Position numbers and translations under genes: made by a program
Origin: Candidatus Multivoradales bacterium
GTDB taxonomy: Bacteria; Acidobacteriota; Thermoanaerobaculia; Multivoradales; JAHEKO01
Assembly (NCBI GenBank): GCA_965223855.1
Contig: CBDCXM010000009.1
Span: 1,184,001 to 1,248,000, forward strand
Direction of reading: 5' to 3'
DNA length: 64,000 nt
The notes under the pieces: generated by a model
What the model was told of the DNA's origin: nothing
The model's database searches: none
Seen by the model: only the letters and a program-made list of their open reading frames with translations
Shown: positions 2,697 to 19,515 of the stretch, one piece after another
Numbering within the stretch: the first letter of the stretch is position 1
How the letters are laid out: every line of letters starts with the position of its first letter

Positions 2697-4382
2697 TTGG
2701 AAGTCCGCGACAGCCGCCGCCTGACCGGCCCCAACATCGTCTCCGACGGTCCGGCTGCGGTCTTGGACGTCGTGCGCGGCGAGGGTGACGACGCCGAGGC
2801 TGCGATCGCCGCCTGGCGATCGCAGCTCGAGCGGATGCTCATGGCGGTCGGCTGGCAGGGAGCCCAGACCTTCACCCGGATCTTCCACGGCGGCCTGAGC
2901 GTCGCCTTCGCCGCCCCGATCGACGCCCTCTACGCCGCCACCGAGGTCAACGAATGGGCGTGGGCCGCCGCGGTCGAGGAGCTGGGTGGCGACCCGGCGC
3001 CGGAGTTCGAGGCGGAGGCGGAGCGGCTGCGCGCCGAGATCGCGGGCGAGCTGAATCCGCCGGTCCTCGCGCTCCAGAAGGCAGCCGCCGTGCACGGGGT
3101 CCAGTTCCTGTGGGACGACGACTTCGTCTCGGTCGGCCTCGGCTCCGGTTCGCGAACCTGGAAGGTGTCCGGCGTGCCCGACCCGGGCGACGTCGACTGG
3201 GCGTCGGTTCACGATGTCCCGGTGGCTCAGGTGACCGGAACCAACGGCAAGACGACCACGGTGCGGCTCCTCGCTGCGATGGTGCGTGCCGCCGGCAAGG
3301 TCCCCGGCGTTTCGTCGACCGACTGGATCGCCGCGGGTGACGAGCTGCTCGATCGGGGCGACTACTCCGGCCCCGGGGGAGCGCGCCAGGTGCTGCGCGA
3401 CCGCCGGGTCGAATGCGCAATCCTCGAGACCGCGCGCGGCGGGATGCTGCGACGAGGGCTGGCGGTGGAGGCGACCGACGTCGCGCTGGTCAACAACATC
3501 GCGGAGGATCATCTCGGCGAGTTCGGCGTCCACGACCTCGACGCGCTGGCCGAGTGCAAGTTCATCGTCTCCCGGGCGGCGCGGCACATGGTGCTCAATG
3601 CCGATGACCCGGTGGTGCGGCGGCACGGCGAGGCGGTCGAGCAGCCGATTACCTGGTTCTCGCTGGATCGAGAGAACCCGCTCATCATCGCCCATCGCGA
3701 GCGCGGCGGTTCGACGTGCGTCCTCGAGTGGGGGCGGATCGTACTGGCGCAGGGAGACGACAAGGTGGCGGTCGCGGAGGTCGCCGAGGTTCCGGTGACC
3801 CTCGGCGGGGCGGCACGTCACAACGTCGCCAACGTTCTCGCTGCGACGGCGGTCGCGCAGCAGCTCGGCCTTTCCGTGCGCGCGATCGGCGAGGGGTTGC
3901 GCAACTTCGAGAGCACTCCCGACACCAACCCCGGCCGCCTCAACGAGTTCGAGGTCGGCGGTGCGCGGGTCATCGTCGACTTCGCCCACAACCCACACGG
4001 CGTCGAGGCGCTGCTCGAGATGGCGGCGGCACTGCCTGGCAAACGGCGGTTGATCACGATCGGCCAGGCGGGGGATCGCGACGACGACTCGATTCGCGAT
4101 CTCGCCCGGGCGACCTGGAAGGCGGCGCCCGACCGCGTGCTGATCAAGGCGATGACCGCCTATCTCCGAGGCCGCGAGGAGGGCGAGATCCCGGCGATGC
4201 TCGAGGCCGAGATGCGCGCGCACGGCGCGACCGACGCGCATCTGGTGCACACCGGGGACGAGCTCGACACGGCGCGCGCCGCTCTCGACTGGGCCGAGAA
4301 GGGCGATCTCGTGCTCCTGATAGTCCACTCCGATCGCGAGCGGGTGGTCGAGTTCCTGCGCGAGCAGGCTAACGAACGGTGA
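2697..4382 (+). CDS. CphA-related Mur-ligase-domain protein lacking the ATP-grasp domain
   Basis: N-terminus 'SRRLTGPN' resembles CphA starts. VTGTNGKTTT, GDYSGPGGAR, ETARGG, PGRLN, DFAHNP and GDRDD align with the cphA M domain. No ATP-grasp motifs. TTG start 13 nt after the cphA stop. Confidence 0.85.
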   Translation: MEVRDSRRLTGPNIVSDGPAAVLDVVRGEGDDAEAAIAAWRSQLERMLMAVGWQGAQTFTRIFHGGLSVAFAAPIDALYAATEVNEWAWAAAVEELGGDPAPEFEAEAERLRAEIAGELNPPVLALQKAAAVHGVQFLWDDDFVSVGLGSGSRTWKVSGVPDPGDVDWASVHDVPVAQVTGTNGKTTTVRLLAAMVRAAGKVPGVSSTDWIAAGDELLDRGDYSGPGGARQVLRDRRVECAILETARGGMLRRGLAVEATDVALVNNIAEDHLGEFGVHDLDALAECKFIVSRAARHMVLNADDPVVRRHGEAVEQPITWFSLDRENPLIIAHRERGGSTCVLEWGRIVLAQGDDKVAVAEVAEVPVTLGGAARHNVANVLAATAVAQQLGLSVRAIGEGLRNFESTPDTNPGRLNEFEVGGARVIVDFAHNPHGVEALLEMAAALPGKRRLITIGQAGDRDDDSIRDLARATWKAAPDRVLIKAMTAYLRGREEGEIPAMLEAEMRAHGATDAHLVHTGDELDTARAALDWAEKGDLVLLIVHSDRERVVEFLREQANER

Positions 4383-5571
4383 CGAGGTCGAGTCCGACGG
4401 CTCGTGCATGCCGGTCGAGGGCGACGTCGATCGCCCGGTCCTCACGCGCGCCGCAGCCGTCCTCGAGGTAGCGCGCCAGCGTCGCGATCGTTCCCGCGCG
4501 CCGGTCGGCCTTGAGATCGACCCGCCCGACCAGCCGTTCGCCGGCGAGCACCGGCAGGCAGTAGTAGCCCCACCGCCGCTGGTGAGCCGGCTTGAAGATC
4601 TCGAGCACCTGTTCGAAGCCGAACAGCAGCTTCGTGCGCTCCCGGTCCCACAGTGCCGGGTCGAAGGGGGAAAGGAGAACTCCCCGGTCGCTCCGCGGGC
4701 GCAGCGTCGCGGCCCGCTCGGCGAGGTCGAGATCCCGAGGCCGGATCCACCCCGCCTGCCGCTTGCCCTGAGGGAGCTGCAGGCTGCAGGGGACGACTCG
4801 ACCCTCCGACTCCAGTTCGGCCAGGGCGGCGTCGATCTCGGCAGTGAGATTGCTCAGCCTCCAGGTGCGGGCGAGGGTCCCCCGGGTCGCCCATCCGTGG
4901 CCGGCGAGCGCGCGCTCGAGGAGGACCTTGAGGCCCCGATGGCGATCGAGCGGCCGCCGTCGGATCTCCTCGGGGATGACCCGCTCGGCGAGGTCGAAGG
5001 AGCGCTGGAAACTGCGGCGCTCGCTGACGGCGAGCACACCGTTCGACCAGTAGGCGCGCAGTACCCGCTTGGCGGCCTTGGGATACCAGCCGCTCCCAGC
5101 GGGTGTCTCCCCCTCGAAGTCGGCGGATCGCAGCGGGCCCTCGTGCTCGATCCGATCGAGCACCTCGCGAGCCAGCGCCGGGTCCTTGCCGACGACGTCG
5201 CCGTACCAGGGGTCGTACTCGAAGTCGCCGCGCCGGAACTCGAACGCCGGGTAGAGCTCCATCGGCAGCCAGCACGCCTCGTGGGCCCAGTACTCGAAGA
5301 CCGGCTCGCCCGGCCGCAGCAGCGCCTCGCCGAAGTCCGGGTCGATTCCCTCGAAGCGCGACAGCAGCACCAGCACGTGACTGCGCGCCCCGGCGACGCC
5401 GACGGTGTCGAGTTGCAGATAGCCGAAGCGCCGCAGCAGCCGGTGAGCCGCGCGCCGTGCGCGCTTGCCGCCGCCCCTCGCCCGTCGCGGCAGACCGGTC
5501 CACTCCGGCTTGACCAGCCCGCCCCGGACGAGCGCCAGCCTGCGGGCGCGGCGGACGTCGATCGAGTTCAA
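4369..5571 (-). CDS. YcaQ/AlkZ-family (HTH_42) DNA crosslink-repair glycosylase
   Basis: LQLDTV, FEYWAHEAC, LLSPFDP…DRER, RRWGYY.LP motifs. TTG start at 5571 overlaps the upstream gene's TGA. Confidence 0.88.
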   Translation of the reverse strand: MNSIDVRRARRLALVRGGLVKPEWTGLPRRARGGGKRARRAAHRLLRRFGYLQLDTVGVAGARSHVLVLLSRFEGIDPDFGEALLRPGEPVFEYWAHEACWLPMELYPAFEFRRGDFEYDPWYGDVVGKDPALAREVLDRIEHEGPLRSADFEGETPAGSGWYPKAAKRVLRAYWSNGVLAVSERRSFQRSFDLAERVIPEEIRRRPLDRHRGLKVLLERALAGHGWATRGTLARTWRLSNLTAEIDAALAELESEGRVVPCSLQLPQGKRQAGWIRPRDLDLAERAATLRPRSDRGVLLSPFDPALWDRERTKLLFGFEQVLEIFKPAHQRRWGYYCLPVLAGERLVGRVDLKADRRAGTIATLARYLEDGCGAREDRAIDVALDRHARAVGLDLVTVR

Positions 5572-6311
5572 CTGCGCTCGCGCCCGGCCGGCGGCCGGCG
5601 CCGTGCCGAGCGGCGGCCGAAGATCGGCATGACGATCGCCAGCAGCGAGTAGGTCCAGCCAGGCAGGGCGAGCGCCGCCCACCGCTCGGGGAGGACGATC
5701 GCCAGCAGCATCGAGGCGACCCCGGCACCACCGACGATCGACCACGCCACGATCTCCGCGCGGGTCTCGTGGCGTTCGAGCGCGTCGAGCCCAAGAGCAT
5801 TCCGTAAGCGCCAGGCGTGCAGGTTGAGCAGCAGGATCGAAGCACACATGGCGACGAAGCCGGCGCCGTAGATCAGGAACATCTGATTGACCTGTGCCGC
5901 CGACTCGATGCCGGAGCGCCCGCGATCGCTGCCGAGGAGGAGAGAGAACTGATCCGCCATCGCTCCCGACATGAAACGCAGCGGGTAGACATAGACCAGG
6001 ACCGTGAAGACCAGCAGGCAGCTCAGCAGGATGGTCGGCGTGTCGTCGAGGCCGAAGCGGCGGCTCCAGTTGTGGTGGGCTGTCCAGAACATCATCAGCA
6101 GCACCGCGCTGAAGAGGAACGGCGGGATCTCCCACATCACCGCGACCAGGCCTGCGTAGTCATCCGGAACGTCGGTCGCCAGGACGAGAAGCGTCAGCGC
6201 GAAGGCGAACGCCGCGTCGGTGAAGGTCTCGATGCGGGTGGTGGCGAGGCCGCGCAGGCGGAAGCCGTCGCGGGTCGGCAGGTCGGCGAGCTGGCGATCG
6301 GTGAGGCTCAC
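5568..6311 (-). CDS. TMEM175 (DUF1211) family K+ channel-like membrane protein
   Basis: RIETFTDAAFAFALTLL (RxxxFSD-type motif), W..HH, about 6 hydrophobic helices. C-terminal part of ORF 5568..7979; GTG start chosen. Confidence 0.85.
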   Translation of the reverse strand: MSLTDRQLADLPTRDGFRLRGLATTRIETFTDAAFAFALTLLVLATDVPDDYAGLVAVMWEIPPFLFSAVLLMMFWTAHHNWSRRFGLDDTPTILLSCLLVFTVLVYVYPLRFMSGAMADQFSLLLGSDRGRSGIESAAQVNQMFLIYGAGFVAMCASILLLNLHAWRLRNALGLDALERHETRAEIVAWSIVGGAGVASMLLAIVLPERWAALALPGWTYSLLAIVMPIFGRRSARRRPPAGRERS

Positions 6312-6434
6312 TGGAACCGAAGGATCATACCGGCGAAGTGACGGACGGCACGGTTTCGGAGACCTCTTCCCCTCAGGTAGGGTTGGGGGAAGTGCACGAA
6401 TGAAAGATCGACAAGGTTCGAGATGGGGATCCCG

Positions 6435-7073
6435 ATGAGGTTCTACCGAACTGCTGCGCTCGCCACCCTCTCGCTGGCCGGAGTTCTGGCCAGTGCCGAG
6501 ACGGAGGGTCGAGAACGCCGCCAGCGCGGTGAGCGGGTCGGAGCTCCGATCCGGGGTCTGGAACGGGCGGAACGCTTCGAGGGCGGCGGTCTGGTGCAGT
6601 ACGACCCTGGTCTCCCAGACGGTACTCGTTTCACCGATCAGGGCTTCAGTTGGCTGGGCAACCTCTTCGACACTCGGAGCGGTTCGCCGCTGGGACCAGG
6701 CACGATAACCCAGATTCAGTGGTACAACGGTCAAACCAACCCGACCGACAACTATCTCGTGATCTTCCCGCAGTCCGGTCCCGACTACGGTGGTTTCGTG
6801 GGGTCCGTCGACAGCTTTGCTTTCAACACCTATAACCTCATCCATGGGCCCGTGACGGCGCCGGTTTTCGTCGGGTTCTACGCGGCCGACCAACCGGCCA
6901 CGCCGGTCAGCCTCGGTTACGCCAATGGCAGCTACAACGGCCAGGGCTTCCATGCATCGCAACGGACGTTCTTCGACAGTGCGGGCGAGACCATCCCTGG
7001 AATGAACATCGTGCTGCGCATCTCCGGAAGTCTCATCATTCCGGTGGAGTTGCTCGAGTTCGAGGTCGAGTAG
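6435..7073 (+). CDS. Exported hypothetical protein with C-terminal IPVELLEFEVE tail
   Basis: Signal peptide MRFYRTAALATLSLAGVLASA; G/N/T/Y-rich beta-type body; YDPG motif; terminal PVEL motif. Confidence 0.75.
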   Translation: MRFYRTAALATLSLAGVLASAETEGRERRQRGERVGAPIRGLERAERFEGGGLVQYDPGLPDGTRFTDQGFSWLGNLFDTRSGSPLGPGTITQIQWYNGQTNPTDNYLVIFPQSGPDYGGFVGSVDSFAFNTYNLIHGPVTAPVFVGFYAADQPATPVSLGYANGSYNGQGFHASQRTFFDSAGETIPGMNIVLRISGSLIIPVELLEFEVE

Positions 7074-7163
7074 TCGTGATCCCGGGCAGCGAGGCTTGCG
7101 GTGACGGGGAACCGCGGGAGGTGAGCAGCTGCCTCCAGAACCCCCGGTAGTAAACTCCTCGAC

Positions 7164-8045
7164 TTGAAGCCGGCACCATTCGAATACCGGGCTCCCCGCA
7201 CGCTCGACGAGGTTCTCGAGCTGCTGGCGGAGCACGGCCCGGAGGCGAAGCTGCTGGCGGGCGGGCAGAGCCTGATCCCGGTGATGAACTTCCGGCTGGC
7301 GCAGCCGGCGCTGCTGGTCGATCTCAACGGTGTCGAGGGGCTCGACGGTTGGGAGCCGACGGCGGACGGGGGCGTGCGGATCGGCGGTCTGAGCCGCCTG
7401 AGCGCGCTCGAGCGGCGGCCGGAGTTGGCCGCCCACTCTCCGCTGCTGGCCGAGGCGCTGCCGTGGGTCGCTCATCCGCAGATCCGCAATCGCAGCACCC
7501 TGGGCGGGACCCTCGCCCACGCCGACCCGGCCGCCGAGGTACCGGCGGTCTGTCTCGCCGAGGGGGCGCGGTTCCGGATCGCTCGTCGGGAGGGCGAGCG
7601 CTGGGTCGAGGCGCGCGACTTCTTCCGCGGTCTCTTCGACACCGCGCTCGAGCCGGAGGAGGCGCTGGTCGAAGTCGAGCTGCCGCCGCCGTCCGCCGCT
7701 ACCGGCAGCAGCTTCCAGGAGATCGCCCGCCGGCACGGCGATTACGCTCTCGCCGGCGTCGCGGCGCGCGTCGAGCTCGACGGTGACGGCGCGATCCGTC
7801 GCGCCCGGCTGGTCTACCTGAGTGTCGGCGATACGCCGGTCGAGGCGCGGGCGGCGAGCGACATGCTCGAAGGCGAGAGCCCTTCGTCCGAGCTCTTCGC
7901 CGCCGCCGCGGCGCACGCTGCGGAGCACGAGGTCGATCCGGCCGGCACGATCCACGCCACGCCGGAGTTCACCCGCCATCTGGTCGGGGTGCTCACCCGG
8001 CGAGCGCTGACGGCGGCCGTCGCCCGCGCGGGAGGGGCGGCATGA
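7164..8045 (+). CDS. Xanthine dehydrogenase/CoxM-family FAD-binding subunit
   Basis: MKPAPFEY, LAGGQSLIP, HPQIRNRSTLGG, ADPAAE, RRHGDYA. Confidence 0.93.
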   Translation: MKPAPFEYRAPRTLDEVLELLAEHGPEAKLLAGGQSLIPVMNFRLAQPALLVDLNGVEGLDGWEPTADGGVRIGGLSRLSALERRPELAAHSPLLAEALPWVAHPQIRNRSTLGGTLAHADPAAEVPAVCLAEGARFRIARREGERWVEARDFFRGLFDTALEPEEALVEVELPPPSAATGSSFQEIARRHGDYALAGVAARVELDGDGAIRRARLVYLSVGDTPVEARAASDMLEGESPSSELFAAAAAHAAEHEVDPAGTIHATPEFTRHLVGVLTRRALTAAVARAGGAA

Positions 8046-8551
8046 GCGACCGGGCTCAGGGCGCCCGTCTACCGGTGCGGCTCGAGGTCAACGGCGCGAG
8101 CTATGAGGGCGAGGCGGAGCCGCGGACGCTCCTTTCCGACTTCCTGCGCCACGACCTCGGGCTGACCGGCACGCACGTCGGCTGTGAGCACGGGGTGTGC
8201 GGCGCCTGTACGGTGCTCTTCGACGGCGAGGCGGTGCGTGCCTGCCTGCTGCTGGCGGTGCAGGCCGACGGCCATCGGATCGAGACGGTGGAGGGGCTCG
8301 CTCCCGCCGACGGCGACGAACGGCTTCATCCGCTGCAGCAGGCGTTCCAGGACGCGCACGGGCTGCAGTGCGGTTTCTGCACCCCGGGCTTTCTGATGAC
8401 GCTGGTGCCGTTCCTCGAGGCGAATCCCGACCCGAGCGAAGAGGAGATCCGGCACGCCATCTCCGGCAACCTGTGCCGTTGCACCGGCTACCAGCACATC
8501 GTCGATGCGGTGCAGCTCGCGGCGCGCCGGCAGCGCGGGGAGGACGAGTGA
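8042..8551 (+). CDS. CoxS-family 2x[2Fe-2S] subunit
   Basis: GCEHGVCGACTV, QCGFCTPG, GNLCRCTGY. Confidence 0.95.
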   Translation: MSDRAQGARLPVRLEVNGASYEGEAEPRTLLSDFLRHDLGLTGTHVGCEHGVCGACTVLFDGEAVRACLLLAVQADGHRIETVEGLAPADGDERLHPLQQAFQDAHGLQCGFCTPGFLMTLVPFLEANPDPSEEEIRHAISGNLCRCTGYQHIVDAVQLAARRQRGEDE

Positions 8552-9837
8552 TCGCGAGTCCGGCGCCCGGTTCGCTCGCGGCAGCGTCGGACGTCGACCG
8601 CTGGCTCGAAGGGCTGCGACTCGCCTTCGACGAGGTCGAACCTCTGGTCGGCGCCTTCGTCGAGGAGCCCGATCGCTGGTCGCGGCTCGCGGCTGCCGCG
8701 CGGAGCCTCCTCCTGCGCTACCCCGACGAGCGCGATCGTCCGCCGTTCTTCGGCGTCGCGGTCGGGGTCAAGGACATCTTCCATGTCGACGGTCTCGAGA
8801 CCCGGGCGGGAAGCAGCGTACCGCCGGCCGAGCTCGCCGGCCCGCAGGCGGAGTCGGTACGCCGCCTCGCGGCCGCCGGAGCGATCGTCCTCGGCAAGAC
8901 GGTGACGACCGAGTTCGCCTACTTCGCGCCGCGCGGCACGCGCAACCCGGCCGATCCCGACCGCACTCCGGGCGGGTCGTCGAGCGGCTCGGCCGCGGCC
9001 GTCGCTGCCGGGCTGTGTCCTCTTTCTCTGGGGACACAGACGATCGGCTCGATCTCCCGACCCGCCTCCTACTGCGGCGTGGTCGGCTTCAAGCCGAGCT
9101 ACGAGCGCATCCCGAGGACGGGAGTCATCCCGCTGGCGCCGTCGGTCGATCACGTCGGCTTCTTCACCCCGGATGTCGCGGCCGCCCGCCGGGCCGCCGC
9201 CGTGCTCCTCGACGGCTGGCTCGGCGGGGGAGACGGGCGGCCCCCACGGCTGGCGATTCCGACCGGGCCTTACCTCGACGCCCTCGAGCCGGGTGGGCGC
9301 GAGCGCTTCGAGCGCGGCTGCCGTCTGCTGGCGGACGCCGGGCTGGAGTGGCAGGACGTCCCTGCGATGCCGGACTTCGACGACGTGGTTGCCCGTCACC
9401 GGCGTCTCGTCGCCGCCGAAGCCGCCGAGGTGCATCGCGAGTGGTTCGCGCGCTACGGCGAGAGCTACCACCCGAAGACCCGCGAGCTGATCGAATCGGG
9501 GCTCGAGGTCGACGCCGAAGAGCTGGAAGCGGCACGGCGCGGGCGTCTGCGGCTCCGACAAGAGCTCGAGTCCGAGATGGAGCGCCACGGGATCGACGTC
9601 TGGCTGACGCCGGCCTCCCAGGACGTTGCGCCGACCGGCCTCGACTCGACCGGGGATCCGATCCTCAACCTGCCATGGAGCCATGCCGGTCTGCCATCGA
9701 TCACCCTGCCGTCGATCACTCCGGCGGCTTCGGCGAAGGGCGAGCTGCCGTTCGGGCTGCAGTTCGTCGGCCGGTTCGGCGCCGACGAGGCGCTTCTCGA
9801 GGCGGCAGCCGCGTGGGAAAGGGGGCTCGGCCGTTGA
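8548..9837 (+). CDS. Amidase-signature (Ser-cisSer-Lys) family amidase
   Basis: GVKD, GKTVTTEFA, TPGGSSSGSAAAVA, GTQTIGSISRPASYCGVVGFKPS. GTG start overlaps the coxS-like TGA. Confidence 0.92.
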   Translation: MIASPAPGSLAAASDVDRWLEGLRLAFDEVEPLVGAFVEEPDRWSRLAAAARSLLLRYPDERDRPPFFGVAVGVKDIFHVDGLETRAGSSVPPAELAGPQAESVRRLAAAGAIVLGKTVTTEFAYFAPRGTRNPADPDRTPGGSSSGSAAAVAAGLCPLSLGTQTIGSISRPASYCGVVGFKPSYERIPRTGVIPLAPSVDHVGFFTPDVAAARRAAAVLLDGWLGGGDGRPPRLAIPTGPYLDALEPGGRERFERGCRLLADAGLEWQDVPAMPDFDDVVARHRRLVAAEAAEVHREWFARYGESYHPKTRELIESGLEVDAEELEAARRGRLRLRQELESEMERHGIDVWLTPASQDVAPTGLDSTGDPILNLPWSHAGLPSITLPSITPAASAKGELPFGLQFVGRFGADEALLEAAAAWERGLGR

Positions 9838-11495
9838 GCGTCGAGCGCCACATCGTCCGCACCGGGTCCTACTTCGACTCGGTCGTGCTGATGCAGTTGC
9901 AGCGCCGGCTGGCCGAGCTCGACGGGGTCGAGGAGGCGGGGGTGGTCATGGCGACTCGAGCCAACCTCGAGCTGCTCTCGCGAGCGGGTTTGCAGACCGA
10001 GCGAATCGAGGCACGACCGGACGACCTCCTGGTCCTGGTCCGGGGCACGACCGAAGCCGCGGCGCGCAGTGCTCTCGACCGCTTCGACGAGCTGGCGGGC
10101 GAGCGGACCGCGGCCGCGGCGACCGACTACCGCCCGAAGAGTGTGGCGACGGCGCTCAAGGAGCGCCCGGAGGCGAACTGGGTCCTGGTGTCGGTTCCCG
10201 GAGAGTACGCAGCCGCCGTCGCCCGCCAGGCGATCGATGCCGGGCGACACGTCTTCCTCTACAGCGACAACGTGTCGCTGGAAGACGAGGTGGCACTCAA
10301 GCGCCATGCCGAGCGCCGCAGGCGGCTGGTGCTGGGGCCGGACTGCGGCACCGCGATGATCGGCGGGGCGGGCCTCGGCTTCGCCAACCGGGTGCGTCGG
10401 GGGGACGTCGGTATCGTCGCCGCGTCGGGGACCGGTCTCCAGACGATCGCCTCGAGGCTCCATCGTGAGGGGAGAGGGGTGTCGCACGGCATCGGCACCG
10501 GTGGTCGCGATCTGGCGAGCGACGTCGGCGGTCGCACGGCGCTGGCCGCCCTGGCCGCGCTGGCGGCGGACGAGGAGACCCGGGTCGTGGTGCTGGTCTC
10601 GAAGCCGCCGCATCCCGAAGTCGCGGCGCGCCTCCTGTCGGCCGCCGCGAGGGTCGGCAAGCCGGTGGTCGTCCATTTCCAGGGGCGCGGCCTTGCCGGG
10701 CGGCGCCTCGGCCCGCTCCACTTCGCCGTCGACCTCGAGCATGCGGCCGCTCTGGCAGCCGAGCTGGCCGAGAAGCCTCCGCCGCCGTTCGAGCCGACAG
10801 GCGACGGCCTCCTCCGCGGCCTCTTCTCGGGAGGCACGTTGGCGGGCGAGGCGGTGGTGCGGCTCGAGCCTCTGCTGCCGGAACTGGTCTCCAACCTGTC
10901 CAAGGAGAGTTCGATCGTCGATCTTTCGACCTTCGCCGGCCACGCAGTGCTCGACCTCGGGGCCGACCAGTTCACCGTCGGTCGGCCGCACCCGATGATC
11001 GATCCGCAGGTGGTGGCGGAGCACCTCTCCCACGCGGCCGCCGACAAGAGGGTCGCGACGATCGTCGTCGACGTCGTCCTCGGTGACGGTGCCCACCCCG
11101 ACCCGGCGTCAATCCTCGCTCCGGCGATCGAGCGTGCCCGCAGGAAGGCACGCGAGGACCTGGCCGTCCTCGCCCTCGTCGTCGGTACCGAGGAAGACCG
11201 CCAGGAGATCGGCGCGCAGTGCGACCGGCTCGAGGAGGCGGGTGCCGAGGTGTTCGATTCGCTGTCGCCGGCGCTCGAGCGGGTCGTCGCGCGTTCGCTC
11301 CCTCCGAGGACCGAAGACGAGGTTCGGGCGATCGCCCTCGAGCCGCCGCGGGAGGTGATCAACGTCGGCATCGATCTCTTCCGCGAGAGCCTCGAGGCGC
11401 AGGAGGTGCCGGTGCTGCAGGTCGATTGGCGGCCGCCCGCCGGCGGCAACGAGAAACTCGCCACGATCGTGGCGCGACTGAGGGAGAGCGCATGA
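9834..11495 (+). CDS. fdrA: FdrA/AllF-like acyl-CoA-synthetase-fold protein
   Basis: YFDSVVLM, SVPGEYA, FLYSDNV, GPDCGTA, GIGTGGRDL, GLFSGGTLA, GRPHPMIDP, VDWRPPAGGN. TTG start overlaps the amidase TGA. Confidence 0.9.
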   Translation: MSVERHIVRTGSYFDSVVLMQLQRRLAELDGVEEAGVVMATRANLELLSRAGLQTERIEARPDDLLVLVRGTTEAAARSALDRFDELAGERTAAAATDYRPKSVATALKERPEANWVLVSVPGEYAAAVARQAIDAGRHVFLYSDNVSLEDEVALKRHAERRRRLVLGPDCGTAMIGGAGLGFANRVRRGDVGIVAASGTGLQTIASRLHREGRGVSHGIGTGGRDLASDVGGRTALAALAALAADEETRVVVLVSKPPHPEVAARLLSAAARVGKPVVVHFQGRGLAGRRLGPLHFAVDLEHAAALAAELAEKPPPPFEPTGDGLLRGLFSGGTLAGEAVVRLEPLLPELVSNLSKESSIVDLSTFAGHAVLDLGADQFTVGRPHPMIDPQVVAEHLSHAAADKRVATIVVDVVLGDGAHPDPASILAPAIERARRKAREDLAVLALVVGTEEDRQEIGAQCDRLEEAGAEVFDSLSPALERVVARSLPPRTEDEVRAIALEPPREVINVGIDLFRESLEAQEVPVLQVDWRPPAGGNEKLATIVARLRESA

Positions 11496-12757
11496 CTTCC
11501 AACCCGGTGGACGCGGCCAACCGCGAGGCGCTCGAACGGATGATGGCGGTCCGCCCGGTACTCGAGACCGTGGCGGTGGCCGGTGACGTCGTTCCCGGCC
11601 TCGACGCCAAGCGGATCCTTCACGCCGGGCCGCCGATCGAATGGGCTCGGATGTCGGGCCCGCTGCGCGGCGCGGTGATCGGGGCGCTGCTCTTCGAAGG
11701 GCTCGCCGACTCGCGCGAGTCGGCCATCCACCTCATCGAGCAGGGGGAGATCGCTTTCTCGCCGTGCCACCACCACCACGCCGTCGGCCCGATGGCCGGT
11801 GTGACGTCGGCCTCGATGCAGGTCTACGTCGTGCGCGACGCCGAGGGCAAGGGGCACGCCTATTCGACCCTCAACGAGGGCTACGGCAAGGTGCTGCGCT
11901 ACGGCGCCTACGCCCCCGAGGTGCTGGAGAAGTTGCGCTGGATGAACGTCCAGATGGGGCCGATCCTCGCCGCCGCCCTCGACGCGTGCGGCGGCATCGA
12001 TCTGCGGGCGCTGCTGGCGGAGGCGCTCCATATGGGCGACGAGGGGCACAACCGCAACAAGGCGGGATCGCTCCTCTTCACCCGGCACCTGGCGCCGAGC
12101 ATCTTCGAGGTCGCCGGGGACCGCGCCCTCGGCTCGGCGATCGTCGAGTTCCTCGGCGACAACGCGCTGTCGGTGCTCAATCCGGTGATGGCGGCGTGCA
12201 AGGTGATGGCGGACTCCGCCCACGGCGTCGAGCGCTCGACCCTGGTGACGACGATGGCGCGCAACGGCACCGACTTCGGCATCCGGGTCAGCGGGCTCGG
12301 CGAGCGCTGGTTCACGGCGCCCGCCCAGGTGCCCGACGGCCTCTATTTCCCGGGCTTCACCAGCGACGACGCCAACCCGGACATCGGCGATTCGACGATT
12401 ACCGAGACCGCCGGCATCGGCGCCTTCGCCATGGCGGCGGCGCCTGCGATCGTTAACTTCGTCGGCGGCGCGCCCGAAGAGGCGACGCACGCGACGCTCG
12501 AGATGTACGAGATCACCGCCGGCGAACACAAGCACTTCACGATCCCTCAGCTCGGCTTCCGGGGGACGCCGGTGGGGATCGACCTGCGCGACGTCGTCGA
12601 GCTCGGGGTGACGCCGCGGGTCAACACCGGCATTGCCCATCGCGAGGCCGGTGTCGGCCAGGTGGGAGCGGGCCTCGTGAGGCCGCCGATGAAGATCTTT
12701 GAAGAGGCGCTCGAGGCGTTCGCCGAGCGCTACCTGCCGCGCGAGGCGCGTCCGTGA
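11492..12757 (+). CDS. ylbE: YlbE/AllG-like DUF1116 family protein
   Basis: LHAGPPI.W, AVGPMAG, NEGYGKVLRYGA, MGDEGHNRN, MARNGTDFGI, DIGDSTITET, NTGIAH…GQVGAG. Confidence 0.9.
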   Translation: MTSNPVDAANREALERMMAVRPVLETVAVAGDVVPGLDAKRILHAGPPIEWARMSGPLRGAVIGALLFEGLADSRESAIHLIEQGEIAFSPCHHHHAVGPMAGVTSASMQVYVVRDAEGKGHAYSTLNEGYGKVLRYGAYAPEVLEKLRWMNVQMGPILAAALDACGGIDLRALLAEALHMGDEGHNRNKAGSLLFTRHLAPSIFEVAGDRALGSAIVEFLGDNALSVLNPVMAACKVMADSAHGVERSTLVTTMARNGTDFGIRVSGLGERWFTAPAQVPDGLYFPGFTSDDANPDIGDSTITETAGIGAFAMAAAPAIVNFVGGAPEEATHATLEMYEITAGEHKHFTIPQLGFRGTPVGIDLRDVVELGVTPRVNTGIAHREAGVGQVGAGLVRPPMKIFEEALEAFAERYLPREARP

Positions 12758-15120
12758 GCGCGGGCGAGAAAACGCTCGTCGGCAAGCGGGTACGGCGCAA
12801 TGAGGACCCGCGCCTGCTGACCGGGCGGGCGCTCTTCGTCGACGACGTCGTGCGCCCGGACATGCTGCACGTGGCGTTCCTGCGCAGCCCCTTCGCCCAC
12901 GCGCGGATCAACGAAGTCGACGTCGATCTGGCGCGCGATCTCGACGGCGTCCACGCTGTCTACACCGCCGCCGACCTGGGAGAGTACTGGCAGCACGGCC
13001 CGCTGCTGGTGCCGCCGCCGCCGGTCGAGGGGGTGGTGTTCCACGAGCGCACCCAGGTGCCGCTGGCGCGTCATAAGATCCGCCACCTCGGCGAGCCGGT
13101 GGCGATGGTGGTGGCGGACAGCCGGGCGATCGCCGAGGACGCGGTCGATCGGATCTTCCTCGATTGCGATCCGCTCGACGCGGTCGTCGACCTGGAACAG
13201 GCGTTGGCGGAGGGGGCGCCGCTCGTTCACGACGACCTGGAGTCGAACCTCGCCGCCTTCGTGCCGCAGAAGAAGGGCGACTACGCCGCGGCGCTCGAAC
13301 GCGCGGACCTCGTGCTGCGTCGGCGCTACGTCTACGACCGCGGTGCTTCGGCGGCGATCGAGAACCGCGGCGTGGTGGCGGAGTGGAATCGCCTCAGCGA
13401 GCGGCTGACCGTCTGGGACACGACGCAGGCGCCGATCCCGATCCGCAACGGCCTCGCGGCGATGCTGGGACTGTCGGAGTCGCAGGTGCGGGTCGTCGCG
13501 CCCTTCGTCGGCGGCGGCTTCGGGCCGAAGATCATGATGTTCTATCCCGAGGAGGTACTGCTGCCGTGGGCGGCGATGCGGCTCGACCGGCCGCTCAAGT
13601 GGATCGAGGATCGCTCGGAGAACTTCGTCGCCACGACCCAGGAACGGGGCCAGATCCACGACGCCGAGATCGCGCTGTCGAAGGACGGGCGTGTGCTGGG
13701 GGTCCGGGACAGCTTCCTCCACGACACCGGCGCCTACGATCCCTACGGCCTCACGGTGCCGCTCAACAGCCAGTGCACGCTGCTCGGGCCCTACGACATC
13801 CCCGCCTACGAGAGTGAGCTGCGGGCGGTCTTCACGAACAAGACGATCGTCACTCCGTACCGCGGCGCCGGTCGCCAGCACGGGGTGTTCGTCATCGAGC
13901 GGCTCCTCGACGCCGCCGCCAGGGAGCTGGGGATCGACCGCATCGAGATTCGGCGGCGCAACTTCATCCGCCCGGAGCAGTTCCCGTACGCCAACGAGGT
14001 GATCTACCAGGACGCGGCGCCGCTGGTCTACGACAGCGGCAACTACGAGCCGCTGCTCGACAAGGCGCGTGAGCTCATCGGCTGGGACGAGTTCGTCACC
14101 ACGACGCAGCCGGAGGCGCGGGCCGCCGGCCGGCACGTCGGCATCGGCATCGTCGCCTACGTCGAAGGGACCGGTATCGGCCCCTACGAGGGGGCGCGGG
14201 TGCAGGTCGAGCCGACGGGGAAGATCACCGTCGTCACCGGCGTCGGCACCCAGGGGCAGGGCCACTACACGGTGCTCGCACAGATCGCCGCCGAGCTGCT
14301 GGGGGCGGAGGTGGACGAGGTCGAGGTGACGACCGGCGATACCGACCAGTTCCACTGGGGGAGCGGCACCTTCGCTTCACGGGGAGCGGTGGTCGCCGGC
14401 AACGCGGTGCGCGCGGCGGCGGCGGACGTGCGGCAGAGGATGCTCGCGCTGGCTGCACGCCACCTCGAGGCAGAAATCGATGAACTCGAGGTCGTCGCCG
14501 GCCATGTCCGGGTCGCTGCGGAGCCGGATCGCACGGTCGATCGTCGCGAGCTGGCGCGCCTCGCCAATCCGCTGCGCGGCGCCGTCGAGCCCGGGACCGA
14601 GCCGGGTCTCGAGTCGACCCAGTACTTCGGGCCGTACCGTGGCGCTACCGCGAGTGGCGTGCATGCCGCGATCGTCGAGATCGATCCGGAGACGATGCTG
14701 GTCGAGATCCTCGACTACGTCGTGGTGCACGACTGCGGCAAGGTGCTCAACCCGCTGCTGGTCGACGGGCAGGTGCACGGCGGGGTGGCGCAGGGGGTCG
14801 GCAACGCCTTCTACGAGCAGCTCGTCTACGACGACGGCGGCCAGCTCCTCAACGCCTCGTTCATGGATTTCCTGTTGCCGACGGCGCTCGACGTGCCGCG
14901 GGTCAAGGTCGGCCACCTCGAGACGCCGTCGCCGCTCAATGAGCTGGGCTCCAAGGGAGCCGGAGAGGCGGGCGCGATCCCGACCGGGGCGCTCTTCGTC
15001 CAGGCGGTCGAGGATGCACTGCGCATCCCCGGATTCGAGATCCGGGAGATCCCGCTCCACCCAAGTCGCCTGTGGGAGCTGGCGACGGCAGCCCGCGCGG
15101 AGGCGGAGGAGGCCTCATGA
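12754..15120 (+). CDS. Molybdopterin-binding large subunit, XDH/CoxL family (form-II-like; not a form I CO dehydrogenase)
   Basis: EDPRLLTG, VGGGFGPK, active-site loop PYRGAGR, QGQGH, GTFASR, QVHGGVAQG, KGAGEAG. Confidence 0.93.
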   Translation: MSAGEKTLVGKRVRRNEDPRLLTGRALFVDDVVRPDMLHVAFLRSPFAHARINEVDVDLARDLDGVHAVYTAADLGEYWQHGPLLVPPPPVEGVVFHERTQVPLARHKIRHLGEPVAMVVADSRAIAEDAVDRIFLDCDPLDAVVDLEQALAEGAPLVHDDLESNLAAFVPQKKGDYAAALERADLVLRRRYVYDRGASAAIENRGVVAEWNRLSERLTVWDTTQAPIPIRNGLAAMLGLSESQVRVVAPFVGGGFGPKIMMFYPEEVLLPWAAMRLDRPLKWIEDRSENFVATTQERGQIHDAEIALSKDGRVLGVRDSFLHDTGAYDPYGLTVPLNSQCTLLGPYDIPAYESELRAVFTNKTIVTPYRGAGRQHGVFVIERLLDAAARELGIDRIEIRRRNFIRPEQFPYANEVIYQDAAPLVYDSGNYEPLLDKARELIGWDEFVTTTQPEARAAGRHVGIGIVAYVEGTGIGPYEGARVQVEPTGKITVVTGVGTQGQGHYTVLAQIAAELLGAEVDEVEVTTGDTDQFHWGSGTFASRGAVVAGNAVRAAAADVRQRMLALAARHLEAEIDELEVVAGHVRVAAEPDRTVDRRELARLANPLRGAVEPGTEPGLESTQYFGPYRGATASGVHAAIVEIDPETMLVEILDYVVVHDCGKVLNPLLVDGQVHGGVAQGVGNAFYEQLVYDDGGQLLNASFMDFLLPTALDVPRVKVGHLETPSPLNELGSKGAGEAGAIPTGALFVQAVEDALRIPGFEIREIPLHPSRLWELATAARAEAEEAS

Positions 15121-15731
15121 AACTCGCCGGAACGCACATCTTCGCCGTCCCGAGGGAGCGGTTGTGGGAAGCACTGCTCGATCCCGAGATCCTCGCCCGC
15201 ACCCTGCCGGGCTGCGACGCCCTCGAGCGGATCGAGGAGAACAAATACCGCGGCGCCCTCACTGTCGCCATCGGGCCGGTGCGCGGCCAGTTCCAGGGAA
15301 CGCTCGAGCTCTCCGATCTCGATCCGCCCGACGGCTACGACATGGTGGTCAAGGGACAGGGCCCCGCCGGCTTCATGAAGGGGAAGGGCCGGATCTCCCT
15401 GGCCGAGGCGGAGGGCGGTACCGAGCTGACCTACGACCTCGACGCCCAGGTGGGCGGCCGGATCGCCGGCGTCGGTCAGCGCCTGCTCGACAGCTCCGCG
15501 AAGGTGGTGGCGCAGCAGGGGCTCGAGGGATTGGCGGCGCAGGTCGAGGGTGGTGGGGATGGCGCCGAAGCGACCGAGCCCCCCGCTCCCCCCAGCCAGA
15601 CACAGATGGCGGCGCGCTTCGCCGGCGGACTGTGGAAAGAGATGGTGCCCGCCCCCGTGCGCAAGGGGCTGGAGATTCTTGTCTGGCTGGCGCTGGGAGC
15701 GGCGCTCGGCTGGTGGCTGCGCGGCGGCTGA
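15117..15731 (+). CDS. coxG: CoxG/SRPBCC family accessory protein with C-terminal membrane anchor
   Basis: W.ALLDP..LARTLPGC, GGRIAGVGQRL, terminal hydrophobic helix; ATGA overlap with the large subunit gene. Confidence 0.88.
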   Translation: MKLAGTHIFAVPRERLWEALLDPEILARTLPGCDALERIEENKYRGALTVAIGPVRGQFQGTLELSDLDPPDGYDMVVKGQGPAGFMKGKGRISLAEAEGGTELTYDLDAQVGGRIAGVGQRLLDSSAKVVAQQGLEGLAAQVEGGGDGAEATEPPAPPSQTQMAARFAGGLWKEMVPAPVRKGLEILVWLALGAALGWWLRGG

Positions 15732-15741
15732 GAGGTTCAGG

Positions 15742-18045
15742 CTAGAAGCGGTAGCGCACTGAAGCGACGACTTGCCGCGGCGGGATCAGCTCGTCGCTCG
15801 TCGTGTGGAGACCGAACGGGTTGGTGAAGCGGCTGTTGACGCCCGCTTCGTCGAGCAGGTTGGTGGCCCGCAGGTCGAGGCTCCACGGGCGTTCGGCCGG
15901 CTGCCATCCGAGGCGCAGGTCGAGGCTGTCCCAGGCGGGTACGCGATCGACGATCGCGTGGTTGTAGACCCGGTACCAGAAGGCGCCGCGGTGGATGTGT
16001 GCGAGGGTCGCGGTCCACTCCGAGTTCGCCGCGTAGTGAGCCCAGTCGAGGGCGATCCGCGAGGTGGCGTCGGTGAGCTTGGGCGGGGTGTTGCCGCGCA
16101 GGTCGACGCGCAGCGAGGCGCGATCCTCGATCGCCGTCGGCGTGAAGCGGCCGAAGCCGGAGGCGCGGAAGTCGGCCGGGTCGAGCGTCAGGTGGGAGGA
16201 GTCGATCCGCCCGTCGAGCGCCGAGAGCTGACCGGAGAGGCGCCAGGCCGGGGCGAGCTGCCACCGTGCGTCCAACTCGACGCCGTGGATCGAGACACGC
16301 GGGATGTTGCCGGTTCCGGCGGCGAAGGGCACCGGATCCTCCTGGAGGTACTGGTAGTTGCGGTAGTCGTAGGCGAAGGCGGTGAGGTCGAGGCGGGCGC
16401 GGCCGCCGGCGAAGCGGTTGCGCGAGCCGACCTCGAGCGCCGTCACCTCTTCCGGGGCGAAGGTCGCCGGCACGTCGAGCGCTCCCGACAGGGCGCCGGG
16501 GTTGCTGCCGCCGTTCTTCCAACCGGTCGAGAGCGAAGCGTAGAAGAGGTGGTCGTCGGTCAATCGCAGGTCGAGCCCCAACCGGCCGGTCACGGCGTCG
16601 TCGACGAGCACCTCCCGCGCGTCGAGGAACCAGAACTGGGTCGAGGCGTCGGTCGAGCGGTCGCGCTGCGCCCTCAGCCCGGCCGTGAGCGACCAGCGCT
16701 CCGCCCCCCGAAGCGTGGTGTCGGCGAAGAGCGCGACGTCCTCGCGCTCCACGGTGCGCTCCTCGACGAACTCGAGCGGCGGCGTGAACGGGGGGAGGGT
16801 CTCAGGTGACGGGTTCTCGATCCGCTCGCGGAACTGCTCGAACGGCGCCGGCCCGATCGCCTCGAGGAAGAAGTTGCGGTTCTCGTGCAGCAGGTAGTAG
16901 CCGCCGAGGCGCCACTCGCCGCGCTCGCCGCTGCCGAAGAGCACCACCTCCTGGCTCACGGCGTCGGAGTCGTTGTCCCAGAACGGCAGCACGTCGAACG
17001 CCGCCGGACCGAAGCCGGTGAGGTCGATCGCTACCAGGTCCTGGGTCAGCCGGTCGCCGTCGACGCTCTGGCGCTTGCGCAGACGCTGGACCCCCGTGAG
17101 CGAGCGTAGCGTCACTCCCGAGGAAGCACGCCATTCGGCCACCACCGAGAGGCTGTCGTTGTCGAGTGCGAAGCTCGAGGGATAGTCCTGCGTCAGTCGA
17201 CGCGGATCGGGGTTGGGATCGAGCCGGCTCTTCTGCGCCGCTCCGTGCTGGTCGGAGCGGTGCGAGAAGGCGGTGAGACGCACCGAGGTCGAGGCGGTCG
17301 GCGCCCAGTCGGCTGCCAGGTGGCCGCTCCAGGCATCGGCGTCGTCCAACTGATAGCCGTCGAGGGCCCCGCCCTCGATCCGGGCGAAGCCGTCGCGTAC
17401 CAGTCGGCGGCCGGCGAGGCGCACGGCGGCCTCCTCGCCGAGCGGCGCCTCGAAAGCGACCGAGCCCTGGCGGTGCCGATAGTTCCCCAGCTCGAGCCGC
17501 GCCGCACCGCCGAAGGATCCTTCCGGTCTCCGGGTGACGAGGTTGATCGCCCCTCCGGTGGTCCCCTGGCCGAACTCCGTCCCCTGGGGGCCTCGGAAGA
17601 TCTCGATCCGCTCGAGCTCGCCGAGGAACAGCCCGTAGGCGAGCGGATTGGCGACGTAGACGCCGTCGAGGTAGAGCAGCACGCTCGGCTGGGTGCTGAG
17701 GTTCTGCGCCGTCTCCCAGCCGACACCGCGGATCGACGCGACCCGGCCGGCGCCGTCGTTGCGCGACACCATCAGCCCCGGTGCCCAGCCGTTGAGGCGA
17801 TCGAGCTGCTCGATGCCGTGGTCCCCGAACGCCTCTCCCGAGACGACGGCGACGGAGGTCGTCGCCTCTGCGAGCGCCACCTCGGCACGCCTTGCGGTGA
17901 CGGTGATCTCCTCCAGGACGAGGGAATCGCCGGCACCGTTCTCGTCGGCAGTGAGCAGCGAGGGGATCAGGAGGCAGAGCGCTACCGGAAGGCAGCGTCG
18001 CAGAGAGGTTCGCTCCGTCGAGCCGCAGCTCGATCGTTCGTTCAT
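15742..18045 (-). CDS. TonB-dependent receptor
   Basis: LEEITVTARR TonB box, ERIEIFRGPQGT..G…GGAIN plug motif, NLLDE, C-terminal YRF. Confidence 0.93.
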   Translation of the reverse strand: MNERSSCGSTERTSLRRCLPVALCLLIPSLLTADENGAGDSLVLEEITVTARRAEVALAEATTSVAVVSGEAFGDHGIEQLDRLNGWAPGLMVSRNDGAGRVASIRGVGWETAQNLSTQPSVLLYLDGVYVANPLAYGLFLGELERIEIFRGPQGTEFGQGTTGGAINLVTRRPEGSFGGAARLELGNYRHRQGSVAFEAPLGEEAAVRLAGRRLVRDGFARIEGGALDGYQLDDADAWSGHLAADWAPTASTSVRLTAFSHRSDQHGAAQKSRLDPNPDPRRLTQDYPSSFALDNDSLSVVAEWRASSGVTLRSLTGVQRLRKRQSVDGDRLTQDLVAIDLTGFGPAAFDVLPFWDNDSDAVSQEVVLFGSGERGEWRLGGYYLLHENRNFFLEAIGPAPFEQFRERIENPSPETLPPFTPPLEFVEERTVEREDVALFADTTLRGAERWSLTAGLRAQRDRSTDASTQFWFLDAREVLVDDAVTGRLGLDLRLTDDHLFYASLSTGWKNGGSNPGALSGALDVPATFAPEEVTALEVGSRNRFAGGRARLDLTAFAYDYRNYQYLQEDPVPFAAGTGNIPRVSIHGVELDARWQLAPAWRLSGQLSALDGRIDSSHLTLDPADFRASGFGRFTPTAIEDRASLRVDLRGNTPPKLTDATSRIALDWAHYAANSEWTATLAHIHRGAFWYRVYNHAIVDRVPAWDSLDLRLGWQPAERPWSLDLRATNLLDEAGVNSRFTNPFGLHTTSDELIPPRQVVASVRYRF

Positions 18046-18752: not shown

Positions 18753-18911
18753 GGGATGGACGGCACGCTCGACCTTGCTCCGGGAACCCCGCCGATCGCG
18801 ACGGTGTGTCTGGACACTCTCGACGCCGTGAAGCTGGGCAGCTCCCGCCGTGCGCCAGGCGCCCCGGTAGAATCGGGTTCGACCGCCAGCCAACGGAGGG
18901 ACCGTTCCAGA

Positions 18912-19496: not shown

Positions 19497-19515
19497 CGGT
19501 CCGGTCGGGGGCGCG

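Follow-up and report, generated by a model that had tools for sequence, protein, structure and literature searches.

This study concerns a seven-gene operon in a 64,000-nucleotide stretch of DNA (hereafter the window) from a Candidatus Multivoradales bacterium, in which genes for FdrA/AllF and YlbE/AllG, homologues of two subunits of the E. coli oxamate carbamoyltransferase (OXTCase), stand together with an amidase gene between the subunit genes of a molybdenum (Mo) hydroxylase. Loci from four phyla share the arrangement, and there is good support for the Mo enzyme and AllF/G being parts of one conserved functional unit. The seven genes, translationally coupled, probably serve as one operon in the catabolism of a nucleobase-like N-heterocycle, for which we propose a route that would release carbamoyl phosphate and an amide.

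Gene order and conservation of the operon

The window corresponds to C9:1184001-1248000 of a 4.52 Mb genome assembled in 9 contigs (92.5% complete). Its positions 7164-15731 hold seven plus-strand genes in the order CoxM (M), CoxS (S), amidase, FdrA/AllF, DUF1116/AllG (YlbE), CoxL (L) and CoxG (G), just as an initial annotation of the stretch had reported (Table 1). The same annotation had described every junction as an overlap of stop and start codons, and six of six junctions (8042, 8548, 9834, 11492, 12754 and 15117) are indeed 4-nucleotide (nt) overlaps, reading in order ATGA, GTGA, TTGA, ATGA, GTGA and ATGA. It is from these six overlaps that translational coupling of the seven genes is deduced; purine-rich stretches lie upstream of the six overlapping starts. 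Promoter and terminator scans of 5600-7400 and 15400-16000 returned nothing above shuffled expectation, and Rfam gave 0 matches at E<=0.1 over 4300-16000. Four DNA-type sequencing datasets, all from one study, contain the stretch, and none of the listed runs is an RNA dataset.

Conservation was assessed with a scan of one genome per species, which yielded at least 565 relatives among 588 pattern-matched stretches, and by tblastn mapping of the seven proteins onto 98 non-redundant loci, made up of the window, 18 loci in relatives and 80 scan loci with one duplicate removed. Denominators below 98 count the loci with enough flanking DNA, and neighbour clustering used 99 loci. By label, the best 80 loci belong to Chloroflexota (55, mostly Anaerolineales), Acidobacteriota (17, mostly Thermoanaerobaculia), Gemmatimonadota (7) and Zixibacteria (1). 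FdrA stands immediately upstream of YlbE in 81 of 87 loci, amidase and FdrA together precede YlbE in 69 of 82, and the series M-S-amidase-FdrA-YlbE is colinear in 60 of 77 loci drawn from all four phyla (Acidobacteriota, Chloroflexota, Gemmatimonadota and Zixibacteria), an arrangement far beyond chance. The order, which the initial annotation had allowed might be unique to this genome, is kept across these phyla.

The large subunit gene L follows YlbE on the same strand in 51 of 71 loci, directly in 7 of them (the window and six Thermoanaerobaculia relatives) and further on in the other 44. From the gene-order counts over the mapped loci, the common architecture is (G/XdhC)-M-S-amidase-FdrA-YlbE-cyclase-L-(AllH)-(G); the string in the relative G033 reads MatB-like ligase, M, S, amidase, FdrA, YlbE, L, AllH, G and NCS2 permease.

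Co-occurrence was surveyed in 41 relatives. An orthologue of YlbE (68-84% identity) is present in 26 of them, a count that includes the window's own genome, and L orthologues share 65-87% identity; 24 relatives have both, 2 have YlbE only, 2 have L only and 13 have neither. In both genomes with YlbE only (G010 and G021) the contig stops at ylbE, and those with L only are G009, which is 62% complete, and G037. Five genomes lack L within 9 kb of the module, and all five carry an L orthologue (65-74% identity) elsewhere. Because the relatives are not independent, this co-occurrence is to be read as a pattern and not as a statistic. One of the 13 genomes with neither gene, G005, is flagged as unpublished; when it is left out, each 41 in the surveys of YlbE, L, AllH, AtzD, carbamate kinase and dihydropyrimidinase becomes 40 and nothing else alters.

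Table 1. Genes of the operon and its immediate flanks, with positions in the window and supporting family matches.
Feature	Position	Strand	Family match or remark
CoxM-like FAD-binding medium subunit, 293 aa, TTG start	7164-8045	+	PF00941 157.1 bits, PF03450 76.4 bits
CoxS-like [2Fe-2S] small subunit, 169 aa, ATG start	8042-8551	+	PF01799 115 bits, PF00111 32.1 bits
Amidase-signature hydrolase, malonamidase-E2-like, 429 aa	8548-9837	+	PF01425 213.8 bits
FdrA/AllF homologue, 553 aa, succinyl-CoA-synthetase-alpha-like fold	9834-11495	+	NF004760 500.7 bits (cut-off 433)
AllG/YlbE (DUF1116) homologue, 421 aa	11492-12757	+	PF06545 313 bits
CoxL-like molybdopterin large subunit, 788 aa	12754-15120	+	PF01315, PF02738, PF20256
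CoxG (SRPBCC) accessory protein, 204 aa, final gene	15117-15731	+	PF06240 89.5 bits
Small secreted protein	6423-7073		No known family; upstream of operon
AlkZ-like DNA glycosylase	4369-6135	-	PF06224 176 bits; divergent to operon
TonB-dependent receptor	15742-18045	-	Convergent, 11 nt past coxG

The enzymes and their nearest relatives

The domain set of the xanthine oxidase family is complete and passes all Pfam cut-offs, with a hammerhead and two molybdenum-cofactor-binding domains in L, FAD_binding_5 and CO_deh_flav_C in M and two [2Fe-2S] domains in S; CoxM orthologues in the relatives share 55-73% identity. The active-site loop of L, VTPYRGAGRQHG, bears out the earlier remark that the subunit has PYRGAGR, a 'form II-like' variant, and not AYxCSFR, and the pattern [VT][TS]PYRGAGRQHG occurs in 53 of 54 cluster L orthologues. 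On the form I CoxL model TIGR02416 the subunit reaches 525 bits against a cut-off of 991, and its best PDB matches are the quinoline 2-oxidoreductase Qor (1t3q, 517 bits) and a mycobacterial CoxL (8uem, 507 bits).

If CoxMSLG were instead a 'form II' carbon monoxide dehydrogenase (CODH) and the three inserted genes an unrelated passenger module, the 948.8 bits of L on NF040766 ('aerobic CODH group 5', cut-off 950) would find a ready explanation. One paper calls PYRGAGR a form II CODH motif and mentions a form II enzyme of Aeropyrum pernix that is reported to oxidise CO (PMC10773090). The same paper describes CO oxidation as absent in roseobacters with form II only (PMC10773090), and another flags the motif as atypical in two actinomycetes (PMC4053681). 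Six further cluster L subunits score 901-941 bits on NF040766, and because all 7 of the 7 scored fall slightly short of 950, the cluster L clade would seem to lie just outside this family. The missing AYxCSFR loop, the interleaved order and YlbE co-occurrence kept across phyla, and the recurrence of nucleobase permeases likewise speak against CO as the substrate, and we regard a CODH with passenger genes as highly improbable.

The FdrA and YlbE proteins align end to end with E. coli AllF (38% identity over 556 columns) and AllG (49% over 410 columns), and FdrA matches PDB 3dmy at E 7.1e-92. A predicted model of YlbE, built on an 18-row alignment, has a mean pLDDT of 62 with residues 279-399 below 50, and Foldseek at E<=0.001 gave as its sole match PDB 3clq, a DUF1116 protein without assigned function that offers no mechanistic clue. 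Purified E. coli AllFGH interconverts oxalurate plus phosphate and carbamoyl phosphate plus oxamate (Kim & Kim 2024, PMC11326118). The initial annotation had supposed that FdrA/YlbE may catalyse a different reaction from the E. coli complex. Given 49% identity to AllG, a reaction of the same kind on a related substrate fits better: by homology, the pair most likely belongs to the same reaction class, N-acylurea phosphorolysis, with a substrate that is probably not oxalurate. By analogy with the purified E. coli complex, FdrA and YlbE may also bind each other as subunits.

That neither allH nor a carbamate kinase gene lies in the operon, as first noted, holds good. Searched with PF11392 (AllH/DUF2877), the window's own genome, 92.5% complete, gave 0 matches while the E. 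coli control matched; this genome has a single AllG and one carbamate kinase, on contig 8 (C8:449052-449978), unlinked to the operon. That kinase gene adjoins a Pyr_redox_2-AIRS fusion, a thymidine kinase and a phosphoribosyltransferase. Carbamate kinase was tried as a marker of the cluster and dropped, being near-universal (38 of 41 relatives). With PF11392, AllH is found in the genomes of 4 of 41 relatives and not in the other 37, own genome included, and on this count the form without AllH is the usual one in this order. AllH is nevertheless a true cluster member in relatives: by tblastn it is present in at least 15 of 98 loci, it scores 71-85 bits (cut-off 25) in Anaerolineales cluster loci, and it lies between L and G in G033 and in G004, which belongs to the same genus as the window's organism.

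A maximum likelihood tree unites the 17 sampled cluster-linked YlbE proteins, which come from four phyla, in a single clade (support 100/99) on a stem of length 0.58. Outside it fall E. coli AllG, plasmid-borne homologues and the proteins of Peptoclostridium and Embleya, and the clade branches among homologues linked to AllH and carbamate kinase. This position bears on an older annotation of FdrA/YlbE as acyl-CoA synthetase-like, by which the pair would activate the acid from the amidase and the lack of AllH would reflect a different job. FdrA does carry CoA-ligase and CoA-binding domains (PF00549 89 bits, PF13607 and PF02629), 37 of 41 relatives yielded no AllH and carbamate kinase appears in 0 of 98 cluster loci. 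On the other hand, AllH sits within the cluster in at least 15 of 98 loci, including its place between L and G in the same-genus genome and G033, the cluster repeatedly includes a distinct gene for a CoA ligase or CoA-transferase, and the E. coli proteins were demonstrated to be an OXTCase (PMC11326118). Taken with the tree, these points make an acyl-CoA synthetase role very unlikely.

A second FdrA/YlbE set was seen in two relatives (L039, at G036:C9:1000-20200, and L040, on G002:C166), with 43% identity to the window YlbE and a position far from the cluster clade in the tree. Its order is a long YlbE (595 aa), an unannotated 265-aa protein, FdrA, a GT4 glycosyltransferase and AllH, and because Pyr_redox_2, AIR-synthase-related and radical SAM genes adjoin, it looks like a different system.

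AllFGH modules also occur in other surroundings. In a plasmid collection, a protein search brought up 194 records, all with less than 60% identity and none of them a cluster-type orthologue. Plasmid pE51_002 of Citrobacter freundii (L157, NZ_CP042536.1 106458-116536) carries in order a hypothetical gene, an AtzD-family ring-opening amidohydrolase, an NCS2 permease, DUF2877, fdrA, DUF1116, arcC and a LysR gene, and plasmid pSR8 of Aminobacter sp. SR38 (L156, NZ_CP062120.1 59842-73654) carries fdrA, DUF1116, a ring-opening amidohydrolase, arcC, an amidohydrolase, a BMP/ABC transporter and DUF2877, the last about 6 kb downstream of arcC. Both modules are flanked by insertion sequences, and truncated DUF1116 remnants were seen on atrazine-type plasmids, for example in P. 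aurescens TC1 (CP000475.1). The ring-opening hydrolases of Citrobacter and Aminobacter score 536 and 518 bits on PF09663 and pass the cyanuric acid amidohydrolase model NF052395 with 581 and 551 bits (cut-off 360). The plasmid modules and remnants suggest that cyanuric acid or biuret can be degraded along a phosphorolytic branch giving carbamoyl phosphate. In Peptoclostridium acidaminophilum the order is PucR, permease, isochorismatase-family hydrolase, permease, DUF2877, fdrA, DUF1116 and arcC, and one study reports allFGHK beside triuret/biuret genes in metagenome-assembled genomes of Nitrospira (PMC12625717). From the plasmid, Peptoclostridium and Nitrospira contexts, AllFGH is seen time and again to come after the opening or trimming of a ureide-type ring; by analogy, the Mo hydroxylase and the cyclase hydrolase would hold this front position in the cluster, with the amidase following.

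A related, divergent cluster is found in Embleya sp. NBC_00888 (L155, NZ_CP108785.1 2135448-2160674) and Nonomuraea gerenzanensis (L162, NZ_LT559118.1 9288955-9314148), whose records are whole chromosomes filed in the plasmid collection. Here NCS2-M-S-L-G lie on one strand and AllH-FdrA-YlbE on the other; the L subunits share 48-49% identity and bear the motif VTPYRGAGRPQG, of PYRGAGR type, and YlbE shares 55-57%. Two open reading frames of the Embleya cluster are without a PDB relative, as is a 571-aa gene between the two arms. These clusters extend the link between L and AllFG to Actinomycetota, and the cultured carriers give experimental access to the hypothesis.

The amidase has malonamidase E2 (1ock) as its best solved relative (E 1.7e-48, 168.9 bits, query 65-423 against chain 52-404), and the alignment conserves the GVKD lysine, the GGSSSGS stretch and the GS(I)SRPA stretch of the serine nucleophile. 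The roles of these residues in a Ser-cisSer-Lys triad are assumed here from the malonamidase E2 literature. An R158-type residue was weighed as an argument for malonamate specificity and dropped, as this arginine is presumably general to the amidase-signature motif. Among NCBIfam models the top match is the malonamidase-like PRK08310 (210 bits, under the cut-off of 391). Other matches below cut-off are to AtzE models (168 and 159 bits) and, at 146-155 bits, to allophanate hydrolase models. Judging from these matches, we propose that the enzyme may hydrolyse a small amide such as malonamate left after carbamoyl transfer.

A candidate ring-opening hydrolase is common in the relatives, where a PF04199 'putative cyclase' gene lies no more than 2.3 kb downstream of ylbE on the same strand in 58 of 84 loci. 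The AtzD/barbiturase family PF09663 was found in 0 of 41 relatives, a weak negative since no control matched in that search; the model does detect the plasmid AtzD proteins by hmmscan.

Proposed pathway and its alternatives

From what is observed, namely gene identities, coupling, conservation, co-occurrence and neighbourhood, we infer every substrate and every reaction of a general scheme that would run from hydroxylation to an N-acylurea, then to carbamoyl phosphate plus an amide, and lastly to an acid. We hold the chances of this scheme to be evenly balanced. The initial annotation had likewise proposed that a Mo enzyme hydroxylates a heterocycle and that the ring-opened ureide or amide is then processed, and the permeases, the PF04199 hydrolase, XdhC and the plasmid contexts joining AllFGH to AtzD lend this idea support.

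The version of the scheme that leads from uracil over barbiturate to malonate is put forward tentatively, as a possibility rather than an expectation. CoxM/S/L, of the PYRGAGR clade and aided by CoxG, would hydroxylate a ring carbon beside nitrogen with oxygen taken from water and not from O2, the most likely first reaction being uracil (or thymine) to barbiturate. The trioxo ring would then be opened by hydrolysis to the N-acylurea ureidomalonate, which is the one-carbon homologue of oxalurate; most relatives have a candidate for this step in the PF04199 'cyclase'-family metal hydrolase encoded between ylbE and coxL. FdrA/AllF and DUF1116/AllG would phosphorolyse the N-acylurea to carbamoyl phosphate and malonamate, as AllFGH does with oxalurate and here without AllH, and the malonamidase-E2-like amidase would convert malonamate to malonate and NH3. 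Carbamoyl phosphate might enter biosynthesis or be used by the unlinked carbamate kinase, a reaction that can yield ATP; to activate malonate, relatives might employ a malonyl-CoA-synthase-like ligase or a CoA-transferase of family III.

A known oxidative route leads from pyrimidine over barbiturate and ureidomalonate to urea and malonate by uracil/thymine dehydrogenase, barbiturase and ureidomalonase, in Rhodococcus and others (Soong et al. 2001, 2002, cited in PMC3758960). In the full-text literature, with subscription-only papers and supplements outside the scope, no gene sequence for uracil/thymine dehydrogenase (EC 1.17.99.4) and no description of the present cluster were found; nor did a match to an already characterised pathway, which the initial annotation had named as a possible outcome, turn up there. 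The proposal is probably a route for a uracil-like ring compound not yet described, built from known kinds of enzyme.

Genes that recur beside the cluster point to nucleobase-like compounds and to acid activation. Nucleobase permeases of the NCS2 and NCS1 families occur in 18 and 6 of 98 loci, XdhC in 18 of 98 and a cytosine-deaminase-like amidohydrolase in 3 of 98. Just after the cluster, pyrB, pyrC-like and pyrF-E genes are found in 3 loci each of 99; an NmrA-like protein recurs in 13 of 99 and a thiolase-like protein in 8 of 99. The two cluster ligases scored have malonyl-CoA synthase (NF005702) as their top family, one passing the cut-off of 558 with 565.1 bits and the other remaining under it with 460.8. 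A Chloroflexota cluster permease has 'uracil permease' as its best match (220 bits, under cut-off), and dihydropyrimidinase/hydantoinase exceeds its cut-off in 13 of 26 YlbE-positive and 4 of 15 YlbE-negative relatives. A search of the own genome for malonyl-CoA decarboxylase (PF05292) found nothing, but it is uninformative since no control matched either.

The window also holds an NCS2 permease gene of its own at 27771-29231 on the minus strand, which passes the xanthine-permease (pbuX) cut-off with 421.6 against 414 bits and shares 56% identity with the permease directly after L in several relatives (L025, L038 and L041). Its link to the operon is uncertain, because it lies 12 kb away on the opposite strand.

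A rival reading keeps this architecture but takes oxalurate as the N-acylurea. FdrA/YlbE would then be a true oxamate carbamoyltransferase and the amidase an oxamate amidohydrolase, with oxalate activated to a CoA ester, and the Mo enzyme, together with the cyclase hydrolase, would supply oxalurate, starting from a five-membered ring of purine or ureide origin or from a ureidoglycolate-like intermediate. The 49% and 38% identities of YlbE and FdrA to the E. coli OXTCase subunits are consistent with this, as are matches of cluster family III CoA-transferases to CoA:oxalate and formyl-CoA transferase models (272-339 bits), the resemblance of the NCS1 permeases (6 of 98 loci) to allantoin permease (287 bits, under cut-off) and the passing of the xanthine-permease cut-off by the window permease. 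The top CoA-transferase match is, however, succinate-glutarate and not oxalate, with no cut-off passed, and the best family of the ligase is malonyl-CoA synthase. A search of the own genome for oxalyl-CoA decarboxylase, in which the E. coli control matched, found none, the best score being 131 bits (cut-off 739), and no allantoin-pathway gene is among the flanking genes scanned. To our knowledge there is no one-step route by a Mo hydroxylase to an oxalurate precursor. On balance oxalurate seems an unlikely substrate.

Another heterocycle, such as an s-triazine, a hydantoin or a pyridine/quinoline, would place AllF/G on biuret, carboxybiuret or another carbamoyl amide, with the amidase as an AtzE/AtzF-like enzyme or as the ring-opening hydrolase. 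The clustering of AllFGH and carbamate kinase with cyanuric acid amidohydrolases on plasmids, the DUF1116 remnants on atrazine-type plasmids and the reported Nitrospira arrangement beside triuret/biuret genes (PMC12625717) agree with such a substrate, and so do the sub-cut-off matches of the amidase to AtzE and allophanate hydrolase models and the fact that the best solved relative of L is quinoline 2-oxidoreductase. The amidase, however, scores higher on the malonamidase-like PRK08310 (210 bits) and finds malonamidase E2 in PDB, and the AtzD family was not found in any of the 41 relatives, a weak point since that search had no matching control. The wide spread in uncultured anaerobic and sediment lineages also seems to fit a common natural substrate better than a xenobiotic. 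We consider a heterocycle of this other kind quite unlikely.

Several findings weigh against the uracil version or against parts of the general scheme. The window operon, having neither cyclase nor AllH, is a reduced copy; because the cyclase is absent from it, this genome has no operon gene for ring opening. The own genome lacks a single-domain cyclase of cluster type and offers just one relative of it, a two-domain protein encoded on the same contig at a distance of about 1.44 Mb, which shares 78% identity with the cyclase after ylbE in G015. In E. coli, allFG without allH restored just 7% of oxamate production (PMC11326118), and 49% identity to AllG leaves room for plain oxalurate as the substrate. 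Carbamate kinase is in none of the 98 cluster loci, and its presence in 38 of 41 relatives, cluster-bearing or not, says nothing. The nearest curated family of L remains the aerobic CODH model NF040766. The acid-activating genes are a minority (family III CoA-transferase in 11 of 98 loci, malonyl-CoA-synthase-like AMP-binding ligase in 9 of 98), the CoA-transferases pass no equivalog cut-off, and no ligase of the own genome exceeds the malonyl-CoA synthase cut-off (best 383.8 against 558). Family names of permeases do not identify the substrate: the 'xanthine permease' cut-off is also passed by a permease whose gene adjoins that of a cyanuric-acid hydrolase. Lastly, no anti-correlation of the cluster with the reductive pyrimidine route was seen in the 41 relatives.

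It can be speculated further, as a three-part reading that we find doubtful when its parts are taken jointly, that the PYRGAGR 'form II CoxL' clade is the missing uracil/thymine dehydrogenase and heads a widespread, O2-independent and ATP-yielding pyrimidine catabolism in Chloroflexota, Acidobacteriota, Gemmatimonadota and some Actinomycetota; that AllF/G-type proteins are general N-acylurea phosphorylases conserving the ureido group as carbamoyl phosphate; and that the interleaved gene order reflects co-assembly into one channelling complex. Were this true, the 'form II' CoxL clade, now commonly annotated as CODH and read in metagenomes as a marker of CO oxidation, would gain a physiological role, and genes for the first oxidative pyrimidine step would be at hand. 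The phosphorolytic branch would save the ureido group as carbamoyl phosphate and potentially as ATP, which would suit anaerobic and sediment carriers. AllFGH would widen from one E. coli reaction to an N-acylurea phosphorylase family whose front ends vary between a Mo hydroxylase, an AtzD-type hydrolase and an isochorismatase-type hydrolase, and the two-subunit form without AllH would be the common one in Thermoanaerobaculia.

Flanking genes and comparison with known systems

The AlkZ-like glycosylase gene that diverges from the operon is unrelated to it. A plus-strand open reading frame at 4408-5652, at first taken for a conserved upstream gene on the strength of a 43% tblastn match in G002, was rejected as an antisense artefact of the AlkZ-like gene at 4369-6135. 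Further away, two adjacent cyanophycin-synthetase-like genes occupy 119-2683 and 2697-4382 on the plus strand, the former with ATP-grasp and Mur-ligase domains and a Cyanophycin_syn N-terminal domain and the latter with Mur-ligase domains only. At 18756-25570 (plus strand) an ECF-type sigma factor gene precedes two genes for Ser/Thr kinases whose C-terminal regions are of PD40/beta-propeller type. A gene for a 1074-aa TPR-CHAT protein lies at 29098-32322 (minus strand), and a 1580-aa open frame, overlapped on both strands by many long open reading frames of high GC content, at 39329-44068 (plus strand).

Compared with the 'form II' CoxL / Qor branch, the cluster shares the L/M/S heterotrimer with CoxG and xYRGAGR in place of the Cu-binding AYxCSFR, and it differs in its PYRGAGR(QHG) motif and in subunit genes that are separated by three or four pathway genes.

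The plasmid AtzD modules are alike in that AllFG(H) comes after the opening of a heterocyclic ring. The Citrobacter plasmid has a nucleobase-type permease, and pSR8 has a BMP/ABC transporter instead. Both plasmid modules differ from the cluster in having a cyanuric-acid-type hydrolase as front end, with no Mo hydroxylase and no amidase-signature enzyme, in keeping carbamate kinase and AllH inside the module, and in a YlbE only 50-52% identical.

With E. coli AllFGH and AllK the operon has in common full-length homologues of AllF and AllG and, in all likelihood, the chemistry of N-acylurea phosphorolysis. It differs in that no AllH was found in the genome and its carbamate kinase is unlinked; whereas the E. 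coli genes stand beside allECD and with AllK, here the genes are set between Mo hydroxylase subunits with an amidase before them, the flanking genes encode a TonB receptor on one side and a small secreted protein and an AlkZ-like glycosylase on the other, and YlbE belongs to a separate, well-supported clade.

The Rhodococcus oxidative route resembles the proposal most closely in its compounds: uracil would be turned into barbiturate by a dehydrogenase, ureidomalonate would follow, an amidase-signature enzyme would take part and malonate would be the end product. The candidate ring opener in relatives is a PF04199 hydrolase instead of an AtzD-family barbiturase, and ureidomalonate would be cut by phosphate, giving carbamoyl phosphate and malonamate, and not by water, giving urea and malonate.

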